Shown here piece after piece: positions 8,898-13,268 of a stretch of DNA of 30,579 bases. Under the pieces are notes generated by a model. That model saw only the letters and a program-made list of their open reading frames with translations, made no database searches and was not told the DNA's origin. Every line of letters begins with the position of its first letter. The first letter of the stretch is position 1. The translations under genes and the position numbers were made by a program. Origin of the DNA: an uncultured archaeon. GTDB taxonomy: Archaea > Asgardarchaeota > Lokiarchaeia > Sigyniarchaeales > SOKP01. The DNA is taken from positions 1 through 30,579 of the forward strand of contig CAYLZE010000061.1 in assembly GCA_964388035.1 (NCBI GenBank). Direction: 5' to 3'.

Positions 8898-10250
8898 TTA
8901 TAGTCTTGCTATGTACCTATCCCGTTCCCATTGAGAGACATGAGTCCGATATGCATCAAATTCCTCAAGTTTCGCGTAATAAAAGTTTTTAAATGGATCC
9001 TCACCAAATACGTCCCGCATTAACTCGGATTCTTTAAAAATAGTTAATGCCTGTCGTAGACTTCCCGGAAGAGCATCGATTCCTGATTTCTCAAGATCTT
9101 TTGTTGAGAAATGATATACATTTTTATCGGTAGGTTCGGGAATTTCTATATTATCTGACATTACCCCATCGAGTCCCGCTGCTAACAGTACGGCAAATTG
9201 GAGGTATGGATTTCCTGCGGGGTCCGGACATCGAATTTCACAACGCGCTGCAGAAGGGGTGCCATGAAAATCAGGCACTCGAATCAATGGAGAGCGATTC
9301 CTAAATCCCCATGCCACATATACGGGTGCTTCAAACCCAGGAACCAGTCTCCTATACGAATTAGGCCAACTACTTAATACCGCACACATTTCTTTAGCAT
9401 GGCTCAGCTGACCCGCAATCCATTTTTTCATTGTCATCGAGATATTATCTGAATTGTTTTCATCATAAAATGCGTTTTTTCCCCCTTTCCAAAGACTCTG
9501 ATGACAGTGCATGCCAGAACCATTTATTCCGGCAAATGGTTTCGGCATGAAAGTCGCCGTCATATCATTCTGGGCTGCAACCGTTTTAACAATGGATTTC
9601 ACGGTGATAGTTTTATCAGCACTTTCCACTGCCTTATCATATCGAAAATCTACTTCATGTTGACCAAAAGCTACTTCATGATGTAACTTTTCAATTTCAA
9701 TCCCCATCGCATCGCAATATTCGGCAATGATATACCGCATTTTTTCATTAATGTCGTAAGGATCATAATCAAAATACCCTCTCAAATCTGAAGGTTTAAA
9801 TGCTTGTTCAGTATCCTTGTCCAGAATAAAGAATTCCAATTCAGGAGCGCAGTAATAGGTATATCCTTCTTTTTCCGCCTTGTCTATCATTCGTTGTAAG
9901 ATATAGCGAGGATCTCCCTCATATCGTTGGCCATCGGGTTTGTAAATATCACATATAACCCGAGCAACTTTGTTACTTTTACGCCATGGAAGGAGATAAA
10001 ACGTGCTCGGGTCCGGAACGGCGACCTTATCGCTTTCTTCAATGGCACCATATCCCGTGATCGAACTACCATCAAAATTCTCTCCCTCTTTCAGTAATTC
10101 TTCGATTCTATTGGCATTTACTTCAAAACTCTTGAGAATACCATGGATATCCGTGAATTGCAGATAAATAAACTTAATCTGCTCCTCTTTTACAGTTTCG
10201 ATTATTTTTTCGCATAATCCATTTCTTTTAGGATCGTCTAATTTAATCAT
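8898..10250 (-). CDS. glnA: Glutamine synthetase type I
   Basis: FDGSSI, HHEVAFGQHE, TFMPKPFAGINGSGMH, RLVPGFEAP, NRSPLIRVP, EIRCPDPAGNPY motifs; 450 aa. Confidence 0.97.
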   Translation of the reverse strand: MIKLDDPKRNGLCEKIIETVKEEQIKFIYLQFTDIHGILKSFEVNANRIEELLKEGENFDGSSITGYGAIEESDKVAVPDPSTFYLLPWRKSNKVARVICDIYKPDGQRYEGDPRYILQRMIDKAEKEGYTYYCAPELEFFILDKDTEQAFKPSDLRGYFDYDPYDINEKMRYIIAEYCDAMGIEIEKLHHEVAFGQHEVDFRYDKAVESADKTITVKSIVKTVAAQNDMTATFMPKPFAGINGSGMHCHQSLWKGGKNAFYDENNSDNISMTMKKWIAGQLSHAKEMCAVLSSWPNSYRRLVPGFEAPVYVAWGFRNRSPLIRVPDFHGTPSAARCEIRCPDPAGNPYLQFAVLLAAGLDGVMSDNIEIPEPTDKNVYHFSTKDLEKSGIDALPGSLRQALTIFKESELMRDVFGEDPFKNFYYAKLEEFDAYRTHVSQWERDRYIARL

Positions 10251-10544: not shown

Positions 10545-11054
10545 ATGAATGAAGAAACGGAATTAGAAGAGATCGATAACGAAATCTTAAGAGAATTGAG
10601 TCTTGACGGGCGAAAGTCTTATCGAACGTTGGCAAAAGAATTAGAAAAGTCTCCCGTTACTATTAAAAAACACGTGGAAGACCTAGAAGAAAAAGGTATT
10701 ATCAAAAATTACGGGATTGGTATTGGATATGAAAAATTGGGATACGAAATCATCGCTCTAATTGAACTAACGATAGCTAAGGGAGAAATGATTAGAATAG
10801 AAAATGAAATCGCTATCGATCCTCATGTTTTCGGGGTGTATGACCTTACTGGAACTTATGATGCAGTAATTCTAGCCAGATTCAAGCAGAGAGGCGAATT
10901 AAATGCTCTGGTCAAAAGAATCAATGGAATTGACTCCGTTGCTAGAACAAATACTCATTTAGTCTTGAACGTGATAAAAGAAGGAATTTCATTCGGGGAT
11001 CTATTAAAATATGAAAAAGAAAAGGACAAATCCTTAGAAGATAAATCAACTTAG
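10545..11054 (+). CDS. Lrp/AsnC family transcriptional regulator, divergent from glnA
   Basis: IDNEILRELSLDGRKSYRTLAKEL..SPVTIKKHVEDLEEKGII HTH; YDLTGTYD RAM motif. Confidence 0.95.
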   Translation: MNEETELEEIDNEILRELSLDGRKSYRTLAKELEKSPVTIKKHVEDLEEKGIIKNYGIGIGYEKLGYEIIALIELTIAKGEMIRIENEIAIDPHVFGVYDLTGTYDAVILARFKQRGELNALVKRINGIDSVARTNTHLVLNVIKEGISFGDLLKYEKEKDKSLEDKST

Positions 11055-11167: not shown

Positions 11168-12202
11168 TTACGTTATGATGGTGGTCCATCCGAACTCATC
11201 TTCAATTTCCCCTTTTTGTATACCGGTTAGCAATTCATATAGTTTCCGCGTGATTTCTCCTGGTTCATGATCATTAAACACTCTTTTTTGATCTTGCCAG
11301 CTAATCGATCCAATAGGAGTAATGACTGCAGCGGTACCCGTGCAAAAAGCTTCCGTGCACTCCTCCGTAAAAAGCACGTCATATGGAATGTCTCTCTGTT
11401 CTGTTTTTATTCTTAGCTTTTTATCTGCGAGCTCAAAAACCGATTTTAAAGTAATCCCTTCAAGAATGGTTCCATCCCAGCTTGGCGTGCATAAGGTGTC
11501 ATTTATCATCGCACAAAAATTTGCGGCTCCCACTTCGCTGATATATTTCATATGAACAGAATCCAAATATAATATCTGTGCAAATCCTTCTTCTTTTGCT
11601 TCTTTAGCTGGCTTCATGGTTCCTGCATAATTGCTGCACGTTTTTGAAAACCCTGTTCCCCCCTTGCTCGCTCTCGTATATTTTTTGGATATTTTCAAAT
11701 CGATTGCTTCAAATCCCTTCGGGAAGTAAGGTCCCACAGGACAGCAAAAAACAATAAAGAGGTATTCTTTTGCAGGAGCGATTCCTAAAATAGGACCACT
11801 TCCAATCATTAAAGGTCGAATGTATAACGCGCCCCCGCTATCATTGGGAGGAAGATATTCTCGATTATCTTTCACGACGGCTGTTACGGCTTCCACGTAT
11901 TTTTTCTCATCATATTCCGGCATTAATAATCGTTCTGCACTATAATTCATTCGCTTTGCATTTTCTTCGGGACGAAATAATATTGGCTCTCCAGATGGAG
12001 TGCAATAAGCTTTCATTCCTTCAAAAATTCCCTGACCATAATTCAACACGCACGCCGCAGGAGAAAGTTCTATGGATCCAAAAGGAACTATCTTTCCCGC
12101 TTCCCACCTTCCATCCTTATAACGGCTAATAAACATTTTCTTGGTGGGGATGAACTCAAACCCTATGTGATACAAATCCACTTCTTTTTGTAATTCTATC
12201 AT
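11168..12202 (-). CDS. ilvE: Branched-chain amino acid aminotransferase (PLP fold IV)
   Basis: LNYGQGIFEGMKAY, LFRPEEN.KRM, LYIRP, catalytic K in GTGFSKTCSNY, EVGAAN, ILEGIT, EAFCTGTAAVITP. Confidence 0.95.
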   Translation of the reverse strand: MIELQKEVDLYHIGFEFIPTKKMFISRYKDGRWEAGKIVPFGSIELSPAACVLNYGQGIFEGMKAYCTPSGEPILFRPEENAKRMNYSAERLLMPEYDEKKYVEAVTAVVKDNREYLPPNDSGGALYIRPLMIGSGPILGIAPAKEYLFIVFCCPVGPYFPKGFEAIDLKISKKYTRASKGGTGFSKTCSNYAGTMKPAKEAKEEGFAQILYLDSVHMKYISEVGAANFCAMINDTLCTPSWDGTILEGITLKSVFELADKKLRIKTEQRDIPYDVLFTEECTEAFCTGTAAVITPIGSISWQDQKRVFNDHEPGEITRKLYELLTGIQKGEIEDEFGWTTIIT

Positions 12203-12436
12203 GGCCTAACACTTTTTCCGATTTTAAATGACCTGCAATTTTGAAAGATTAGCTCGTAACTGACCTCTTTCTAATGCAACTTGAGATTTTGATTAAGCAA
12301 GTAAGATTTGCAGAAATGTGGAAAATTAGAAACAGGCAGAAAGAGCAATCTTACTTTATAATACTAATGCTACGGCTACCCGTGCTCTAATAGCACTTGC
12401 CACTACGATAATCGCATTAGTATTGAAAGAGATCAT
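12203..12436 (-). promoter_or_regulatory. Structured 5' leader of ilvE (candidate attenuator)
   Basis: Perfect inverted repeats at 12360-12370/12414-12424 (11 bp) and 12299-12308/12347-12356 (10 bp). Segment 12265-12277 has several competing complements. Confidence 0.6.
12356..12436 (-). CDS. Putative Ile/Val/Leu-sensing leader peptide MISFNTNAIIVVASAIRARVAVALVL (26 aa)
   Basis: ATG..TAA ORF with 11/26 BCAA codons (including tandem IIVV) plus 6 Ala. Ends 153 nt upstream of ilvE and starts about 23 nt downstream of a BRE/TATA. Confidence 0.7.
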   Translation of the reverse strand: MISFNTNAIIVVASAIRARVAVALVL

Positions 12437-12458
12437 TATATGTTTTTATTTAGACAAG

Positions 12459-12473
12459 TATTAAAATTTTTCT
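12459..12473 (-). promoter_or_regulatory. Archaeal BRE-TATA promoter (AGAAAAA-TTTTAATA) for leader-ilvE transcript
   Basis: 22 nt lie between the TATA box and the leader ATG, the spacing expected for a leaderless transcript starting at or near that ATG. Confidence 0.55.
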
Positions 12474-12536
12474 AAAAGAGTCTTATCTTTCTTTTTAATG
12501 CCAATTTAAATGAAAATTCTAACTCTGTCTTCCTAT

Positions 12537-13268
12537 TCATTGCATCCTGAATTTAAATAGATAAAAAAATCTGATGGGGATGACTATAGCATAGAGTATA
12601 GTGAATACAATAAAGGTATAATTAGGATATAACATTAAGACATATACACCAAAAATTGCTCCCAAGATGAGAAAAAAAAAGCCTAGTTTTTGAAGGTTTC
12701 TATTCTCTTTTTTAAAATAGAATAATTGACCAAAGAGCATGTTAACGCTCCCAAAAAGGAGAATGTAGCTTATCATGATGACGTTGGGGGATAGTAATAA
12801 CCAGGCTAATATCTGAAATAATAAGCCTAATCCCAAACCTCGGGTGATTACAATGGAAAAATAACTTATTTTTTCAACATTATCCATTTCATCGACTTTA
12901 GTTTTATAATTAAAAAAAATGCTAAATACCAATAGATCCAACCCAAAATTGAAAAGTATGAAAACGGGAAGGAGAAAGATATTATTAAAGTTACAGGTAA
13001 TCAATTGAGATAATGAGCAGTATGCGTTCAAGACAGCAATGGTTGATGCCAAAATGATTATCATTTTGGTATTCTCTAATTCGTCTCTTTTTTTGAATTT
13101 TAAGAGAGAAAAACCGATAGTCAAAAAAAAGAAACTATATATGAATGCAGTAACAGTAAGTTCCAAGAATTCTATAGCTAAAAAACCGACGATCAGATGA
13201 GTCATTCCTAACAAAATATAAACATATATAGCAACCGAAACAAATTTATCGTTATTGGCGCTTCCCAT
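12537..13268 (-). CDS. Hypothetical integral membrane protein (about 8 TM, apparently two 4-TM halves)
   Basis: Hydrophobic throughout; a TTTAAATA box lies about 22 nt upstream of the ATG. Confidence 0.7.
   Translation of the reverse strand: MGSANNDKFVSVAIYVYILLGMTHLIVGFLAIEFLELTVTAFIYSFFFLTIGFSLLKFKKRDELENTKMIIILASTIAVLNAYCSLSQLITCNFNNIFLLPVFILFNFGLDLLVFSIFFNYKTKVDEMDNVEKISYFSIVITRGLGLGLLFQILAWLLLSPNVIMISYILLFGSVNMLFGQLFYFKKENRNLQKLGFFFLILGAIFGVYVLMLYPNYTFIVFTILYAIVIPIRFFYLFKFRMQ

Follow-up and report, generated by a model that had tools for sequence, protein, structure and literature searches.

The DNA analyzed here (the window, 30,579 nt) comprises positions 1 to 30,579 of the forward strand of contig CAYLZE010000061.1 in assembly GCA_964388035.1, from an uncultured archaeon of the GTDB lineage Asgardarchaeota; Lokiarchaeia; Sigyniarchaeales; SOKP01. 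The genome is available as a 5.5-Mb assembly of 211 contigs. On the minus strand of the window lies ilvE, whose product scores above the cut-off of its NCBIfam family and also matches Pfam Aminotran_4. Upstream of ilvE is a leader that contains a short ORF, a TATA box in front of that ORF and a series of complementary segments within and behind it (Table 1). An Lrp/AsnC-type regulator gene (window 10545-11054, plus strand) is located tail to tail with ilvE, and the ORF adjoining that regulator (8898-10250, minus strand) resembles, by eye, a glutamine synthetase. Expression of ilvE may therefore be subject to two layers of control, with an amino-acid-responsive regulator acting beside the leader.

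Table 1. Features of the ilvE leader region, in window coordinates.
Feature	Position	Strand	Basis or remark
ilvE, branched-chain amino acid aminotransferase gene, 344 codons	11168..12202	-	NCBIfam NF009897, 408.5 bits (cut-off 307)
Box 2, second AGGUCAU copy, about 30 nt after box 1	12228..12234	-	By eye; IlvE-class leaders
Box 1 (third segment, 12277-12265)	12260..12277	-	12261-12271 form the P0 3' strand
P2 3' arm	12299..12311	-	Pairs with 12356-12345; formal covariation
U/C-rich P2 loop, 33 nt, with CUCUUUCU complementary to AGAAAGAG of box 1	12312..12344	-	
P2 (stem 2) 5' arm, from the last base of the stop codon	12345..12356	-	Formal covariation
Leader ORF, 26 codons and TAA (stop 12358-12356)	12356..12436	-	ORF list; counterpart in every parsed copy
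P1 3' arm, last four sense codons Ala-Leu-Val-Leu	12360..12370	-	Several pair types per position across the family
Inner hairpin GUGCU/AGCAC within the ORF	12382..12396 (12396-12392 / 12386-12382)	-	Seen in window sequence and fold
P1 (stem 1) 5' arm, codons 5-8	12414..12424	-	Duplex energy; family test
P0 5' strand, ORF nt 2-12 including UG of the start codon	12425..12435	-	Pairs with 12261-12271
TATA box TTTTAATA	12459..12466	-	23-30 nt before the A of the leader ATG

The spacing between the TATA box and the leader ATG places the predicted transcript start at that ATG or a few bases before it, which implies that the leader ORF is leaderless or nearly so. Ten of the last 12 residues that it encodes are Ala (4), Val (3), Leu (2) or Ile (1). 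A scan of the region against Rfam 15 identified no family at or above its gathering score on the leader. A weak match to Phe_leader (window 12672-12777, minus strand; gathering score 55, observed 25.6 bits, E 0.22) sits within a 243-codon membrane-protein ORF upstream of the leader, and is most likely a chance match in Phe/Leu-rich coding sequence.

We collected relatives of the leader by a pattern search, followed by an nhmmer profile and then a covariance model of 159 positions, termed R1. In the pattern search, a 20-nt pattern allowed two mismatches was no more frequent than its reversed control, and useful matches were confined to zero or one mismatch. The closest IlvE orthologues carried the same kind of small ORF upstream, and then the same sequence around its stop codon. 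Within one Asgard (Promethearchaeota) family, 92 of 135 genomes, representing all 13 genera, contained an R1 match; among genomes sampled from other families of the phylum, 3 of 126 did. All three of the latter matches were borderline, and neither of the two that were retrieved contained an ORF. No credible copy of the leader element was thus found in any other family sampled. The parsed set consists of 92 distinct leader copies from relatives that are kin to one another, so that counts across it overstate the number of independent observations.

Every parsed copy contains an ORF of 16-38 codons whose stop codon falls at the boundary between two of the helices described below (P1 and P2), and the frame is open in all of them despite 17 different ORF lengths. 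A TATA-like hexamer occurs within -38 to -24 of the leader ATG in 87% of the 92 copies, compared with 9-20% in control windows; in most copies it is located 29-34 nt upstream, and the commonest start context is ATAATG. The element always lies on the strand of the gene that it precedes, at a distance of 120-220 nt, and no terminator was found between element and gene at the IlvE-class loci. The fixed distance of the TATA box and the constantly open frame are indirect signs that the leader ORF may be translated. Leader ORFs, as well as several small downstream ORFs that have no Pfam match, are likely to be missing from current gene calls, and their recognition would be a gain for annotation. A CCCAT(T/A)TT motif also recurs in many IlvE-class leaders, where it directly precedes the TATA box and lies about 45-50 nt ahead of the leader ATG (at loci L003, L049, L066, L062, L051, L080, L086 and others). 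This motif, which is absent from the window promoter, may be a regulator site.

The amino acid composition of the leader tail tracks the downstream gene across the family. Averaged over the last 12 residues, leaders of IlvE loci (16) contain 5.2 Ala, 2.7 Val, 1.6 Leu and 1.4 Ile, those of leucyl-tRNA synthetase (LeuRS) loci (16) contain 7.2 Leu, and those of acyl-CoA dehydrogenase loci (5) contain 6.2 Val and 2.8 Leu; in classes that precede small unannotated ORFs (about 34 loci), the means are 4-5 Val and 4-7 Leu. In the window, as in nearly all 92 copies, the codon run extends as far as the final sense codon. Given that leader codon runs match the gene they precede, a ribosome very probably gauges amino acid supply at the leader. 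The targets hint at opposite directions of the response: LeuRS points to a leader that is on when the cell is starved, whereas the catabolic-looking targets (acyl-CoA dehydrogenase and a PLP decarboxylase) would suit one that is on when the cell is replete.

The genome that contains the window holds two R1 copies (contigs C61 and C128). It also encodes ilvC, ilvD and leuA, so that ilvE may serve synthesis; none of the contigs that carry these three genes contains either R1 copy. The second leader (G000:C128:2021-2215, minus strand; locus L126) has a Val/Leu tail; beyond it, after about 150 nt and a strong AGGAGG, comes a 41-codon ORF ending in Ile-Ala-Trp. Val/Leu leaders at about 34 loci of relatives precede similar acidic ORFs of 41-68 codons, about 25 of which share an Ala-Trp end or a P-[AG]-E-[IL]-E-I-E motif. 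A search of this small acidic family against Pfam gave no match, and an Atlas search returned nothing informative. No leader of the R1 type was found upstream of the genome's own LeuRS gene, and a crude scan of the genome for other amino acid leaders (His, Trp and others) revealed none that was convincing.

A second ilvE gene in the genome (contig C23) lacks the leader and has unrelated neighbors. In a phylogenetic tree of IlvE proteins, from which those shorter than 300 residues were excluded, all 29 leaderless proteins and one from a locus whose upstream sequence is too short for a call form one clade, and 17 leader-bearing proteins lie apart from it. The two groups are split at a single branch, indicating that the leader stayed with one of two paralogues. 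Upstream of the leaderless gene (L127:2720-2960, on G000:C23) lies a GC-rich island of about 250 nt in otherwise AT-rich intergenic DNA. Similar spurious ORF translations revealed a resembling sequence upstream of ilvE in two relatives (L015 and L020); ARAGORN identified no tRNA in the island, and Rfam no family. Adjoining the second ilvE is a gene for a 564-residue Ras/Roc-family GTPase with a C-terminal zinc ribbon (L127:686-2380, minus strand).

Three helices can form in the leader RNA of the window: P0 joins the beginning of the ORF to box 1, P1 lies within the ORF, and P2 begins at the stop codon. Each duplex was assessed by its energy relative to 500 shuffles of one arm. P0 (11 bp) reaches -15.9 kcal/mol, with 1 of 500 shuffles as good; the corresponding values are -16.7 kcal/mol and 9 of 500 for P1, and -13.3 kcal/mol and 13 of 500 for P2. 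Folded as a whole, the 251-nt leader is only modestly more stable than its shuffles (z -2.0). P1 and P2 had been proposed as stems 1 and 2 in a first-pass annotation of the window. All segments lie where that annotation placed them: stem 1, with the inner GUGCU/AGCAC hairpin; stem 2, drawn there from the stop codon around a pyrimidine-rich loop and given with its full limits in Table 1; and the third segment. The same annotation held that a third segment, part of box 1, can pair either with this loop or with the 5' leader, and both duplexes are indeed favorable: -13.9 kcal/mol with the P2 loop (14 of 500 shuffles as good) and -17.4 kcal/mol with the first 26 nt of the transcript (0 of 500). 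Box 1 begins with GCAUUA (12272-12277), a copy of the start of the P1 3' arm. Between box 1 and box 2, relatives contain a palindrome, AAGCGCUU, followed by a U-rich stretch, and a protein may bind there at the DNA level.

All three helices recur in the family. P0 links a box about 80-100 nt past the stop codon to the initial 8-12 nt of the transcript, which contain the start codon; P1 pairs codons ~4-8 with the last codons of the ORF; and P2, of 12-17 bp, begins 2-5 nt into or after the stop codon. For 54 members, cognate arms were compared with shuffled arms, and each helix performed better than the shuffles in most members (mean z -2.4 for P0, -3.5 for P1 and -3.6 for P2). Cognate arms in these members also fit better than arms swapped in from other members. 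P1 was significant at p<=0.05 in 44 of the 54, and P0 lies at or below -7 kcal/mol in 65 of the 92 copies. The strands of P0 covary (AUGACC/GGUCAU, AUGAUC/GAUCAU, AUGGUU/AGCCAU, CUAAAA/UUUUAG), as do those of P1 between classes (ACUAC/GUAGU, ACUGC/GCAGU, AUGCU/AGCAU). The per-sequence duplex tests were used for P1 because its register shifts by whole codons, which defeats fixed alignment columns. Formal covariation was determined for P2 in a model alignment of 83 sequences, where 87% of cells are paired and 9 of 9 pairs have changed on both sides. Double-change cells number 95, compared with 33 in shuffles, and the observed score was reached by 0 of 500; in slid controls the share of paired cells fell to 33-54%. 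RNAalifold, applied to a plain MAFFT alignment, recovered only six P2 pairs. Stems 1 and 2 are therefore conserved in relatives with compensatory changes, and the fold of the leader RNA is real and conserved.

The first-pass annotation had further described the folds as mutually exclusive, which proved to be correct only in part. P0, P1 and P2 abut and are nested or adjacent, so that the ribosome-free leader is a three-helix junction in which all three are compatible and can coexist; an alternative to P1 was found in the window only. In that copy, the GCAUUA before AGAAAGAG can displace the P1 3' arm, and AGAAAGAG itself has two possible partners, nt 5-12 of the transcript and CUCUUUCU of the P2 loop. 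The suggested competition between the third segment and stem 1 is strong in the window (-12.5 versus -4.5 kcal/mol) but absent across the family (mean z 0.03), and was rejected as the core switch. The conserved partner of the third segment is the first 11 nt of the transcript, including the start codon. The 5' half of box 1 and the P2 loop show moderate conservation of their pairing (mean z -1.3, with 40% at p<=0.05). A search for the classical 1:2, 2:3, 3:4 logic of terminator and antiterminator did not recover it, the candidate alternatives being at background family-wide. A local hairpin of the P2 5' arm with the U run was also considered as an early antiterminator; it was significant in some small-ORF classes only (mean z -0.6) and was set aside. 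What truly excludes P0, P1 and the P2 5' arm is a ribosome on the ORF. With stem 1 contained in the ORF and stem 2 starting from the stop codon, a ribosome must remodel both, as the first-pass annotation had anticipated.

Beyond the helices, the pyrimidine tract of the P2 loop is the sole conserved feature of the leader, and conservation between classes is poor behind box 1. The loop is 81% pyrimidine at +20 to +30 after the stop codon across the family. In 78 of the 92 copies, five or more T occur in a row at +17 to +42, starting most often at +24, which places the oligo-U run about 24-29 nt past the leader stop codon; a second T run often follows 9-15 nt after the first. The window copy contains no run of five or more U, only the U/C-rich loop at +13 to +45. 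An oligo-U run is likewise absent from the five acyl-CoA dehydrogenase leaders, a class that may use a different output. These five leaders (loci L044, L050, L072, L160 and L174) have Val-run tails and, within the P2 loop, a CUCUUUC(U) that is complementary to GAAAGAG of box 1, as in the window; the L072 loop forms a perfect 8-bp match with AGAAAGAG.

The U/C-rich tract had been singled out in the first-pass annotation, which reported no classical GC hairpin with poly-U and named FttA/aCPSF1 as a possible termination factor. Conservation of the tract in relatives bears out the first point. As to the second, a hairpin-plus-U-run intrinsic terminator was not found in 12100-12600, and the oligo-U runs of relatives have no adjacent GC-rich hairpin; an oligo-U run of this sort is a signal of the archaeal type. 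Sense-strand T>=5 runs are enriched directly behind long ORFs in this genome (49%, compared with 39% for A runs; inside genes, 17% compared with 26%). As to the third, the genome encodes aCPSF1/FttA as a 636-aa ORF on G000:C7 (TIGR03675, 865.8 bits; cut-off 580). In published structural work the FttA terminator spans RNA positions -1 to -36, is U-rich between -30 and -36 and has a U at -23, and FttA is a proposed counterpart of Rho in coupling surveillance (PMC11616081). For aCPSF1, joint action with U tracts in termination is reported (PMC8716108). The tract of the leaders, a candidate recognition site that would not lie under the ribosome, would fit the U-rich preference reported for FttA (PMC11616081). 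Steric shielding by the ribosome is not assured, because about 12 nt before the tract would be left free, on the published geometry of FttA, by a ribosome parked on the stop codon. P2 forms only after polymerase has passed the U tract, too late to act on it.

Together, the covarying helices, the ORF, its spacing from the promoter and the agreement of the codon runs with the genes downstream appear to be best explained by a leader-peptide amino acid sensor, a reading to which we assign a probability of about 0.7 and for which the stretch shown would be the RNA body. The promoter would start the transcript at or near the ATG of the 26-codon ORF, which ends in Ala, Val, Leu and Ile codons. The ribosome-free leader would form P0, P1 and P2 as adjacent helices; a translating ribosome would open P0 and P1, and one positioned on the last codons or the stop codon would also hold the P2 5' arm. 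How long it dwells at the end of the ORF would be set by the supply of charged tRNA for the tail codons, and the position of the first ribosome would decide whether polymerase ends the transcript at the U/C-rich tract, either intrinsically at oligo-U or through aCPSF1/FttA. The three-helix fold would then lock the leader, with its start codon hidden and the U tract enclosed. Translation of the ORF, ribosome stalling, the termination step, its factor and its direction are the inferred parts of this scheme.

We favor premature termination at the tract as the output because the pyrimidine tract is the only conserved feature beyond the helices, oligo-T follows ORFs in this genome and aCPSF1/FttA is encoded, although the assignment is tentative and falls short of even odds. 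More doubtful again is the complete proposal, in which the first ribosome on a leaderless ORF would gate oligo-U termination, by FttA or intrinsically, in a branched-chain/alanine/leucyl-tRNA regulon of one Asgard family.

The same ribosome sensor could instead use the three-helix fold to control translation or decay of the full-length mRNA, which we consider unlikely. In one version, the Shine-Dalgarno-like box 1 would be freed or hidden, determining whether downstream pyrimidine tracts base-pair with the ribosome-binding site of the main gene; in another, the paired 5' end would be shielded from 5'-3' exonucleases. P0 does hide the 5' end and the start codon. By eye, boxes 1 and 2 are Shine-Dalgarno-like and the 5' end resembles a Shine-Dalgarno complement, and one small-ORF class carries CACCUC about 20 nt before GGAGGUG and the start codon. 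Such control would also be in keeping with the moderately conserved duplex between the box 1 5' half and the P2 loop, and with the favorable energy of box 1 with the following 45 nt in the window (-11.7 versus -7.6 kcal/mol). However, the relevant pairings are at background across the family: z is -0.35 for box 1 with downstream sequence, -0.21 for the post-box segment with the Shine-Dalgarno region, and 0.06 for the P2 loop with the Shine-Dalgarno region. Moreover, it is the oligo-U run that is conserved between classes and not the region after box 1, and control of translation or decay offers no reason for the fixed distance of that run from the stop codon. Masking of the ribosome-binding site of the main gene by pyrimidines of the loop or the post-box segment was considered as a candidate in its own right, and was rejected because such pairing is at background across the family.

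A very unlikely alternative is that the small ORF encodes a working hydrophobic micro-protein, such as a membrane peptide or a type I toxin-like peptide whose mRNA has a long-range 5'-3' fold, and that the helices tune its own translation or stability. In hok-type toxin mRNAs, a long-range helix sequesters the start codon; the leader resembles some toxin mRNAs in this respect, and its tails of 10-15 residues are hydrophobic. Yet it is the composition of the tail that is kept and not its sequence, and this composition follows the downstream gene (Leu with LeuRS, Ala-rich with IlvE). The conserved N-terminal Asn-Thr residues are explained by complementarity of their codons to the Val and Leu codons of the tail in P1, acidic residues break up many tails, and the constant strand of the element, its place 120-220 nt ahead of a gene and the lack of an intervening terminator in the IlvE class also argue against an independent peptide. 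Least probable of all is a purely non-coding RNA, a three-way junction that binds a ligand or protein and in which the reading frame would be open by chance. Ligand-binding RNAs are typically compact three-helix junctions that may hold a loop-strand pseudoknot, and an Lrp/AsnC regulator gene adjoins ilvE; but in about 90 copies with 17 ORF lengths the ATG keeps its distance from the TATA box and the stop codon its place at the P1/P2 boundary, always in frame, the helices do not need class-specific codon runs, and Rfam gave no match.

Leader-peptide control is known in bacteria, and full-text searches on archaeal leader peptides, uORFs and attenuation found no archaeal report of it. In PMC8448881, promoter recruitment is called the only known target of archaeal activation and repression. 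If the leader-peptide sensor is correct, the bacterial logic of sensing from ribosome to polymerase would work with archaeal, eukaryote-like machinery, and through a fold, from start codon to distant box, that would have no bacterial counterpart. The leader would also supply a natural, sequence-defined substrate for archaeal termination (oligo-U, FttA and Spt4/5) near a ribosome, a question posed by PMC11616081. Its approximately 90 natural variants, with differing codon runs and targets, constitute a ready mutational series.

Among known systems, the leader is most readily compared with the branched-chain attenuators ilvL-ilvGMEDA, ivbL-ilvBN, leuL-leuABCD and the ilvBNC attenuator of Corynebacterium glutamicum, the last of which has three hairpins (PMC11857589). 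It shares with them a short ORF at the transcript start that contains an Ile/Val/Leu run, helices that overlap the codons of the run and the stop codon, and a branched-chain amino acid gene as target. Unlike these attenuators, the Asgard leader is found in an archaeon on a transcript that is predicted to be leaderless, its regulatory codons include Ala and run up to the stop codon, and its conserved helices are compatible with each other rather than alternatives. It is closed by a helix between the start codon and a distant box, and in place of a GC hairpin with a U tail it has an oligo-U or U/C tract within a hairpin loop.

The pheM-pheST attenuator of E. coli places a leader ORF rich in the cognate amino acid in front of an aminoacyl-tRNA synthetase gene, an arrangement shared by the Leu-run leaders that precede a LeuRS gene at 16 loci of the family; the window copy differs in that it precedes ilvE and not a synthetase, and the type of terminator and the helices differ as well. 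The tnaC-tnaAB system of E. coli senses free tryptophan in the exit tunnel, and the ribosome that stays at the end of its leader ORF keeps the termination factor Rho from acting. The Asgard leader is similar in that sensing would occur at the end of the leader ORF, a U/C-rich tract that may serve as a factor entry site lies within about 25 nt, and a factor-dependent terminator is the candidate output. It is dissimilar in that its signal would be tRNA charging, FttA is unrelated to Rho, and the tract would lie outside a ribosome at the stop codon. Finally, leaderless polycysteine short ORFs of mycobacteria are cysteine-responsive attenuators (bioRxiv 10.1101/834739). As is proposed for the Asgard family, a leaderless short ORF with a run of one kind of codon forms the first cistron and gauges amino acid supply for the genes downstream; the mycobacterial ORFs are bacterial, respond to a different amino acid and lack the three-helix fold.
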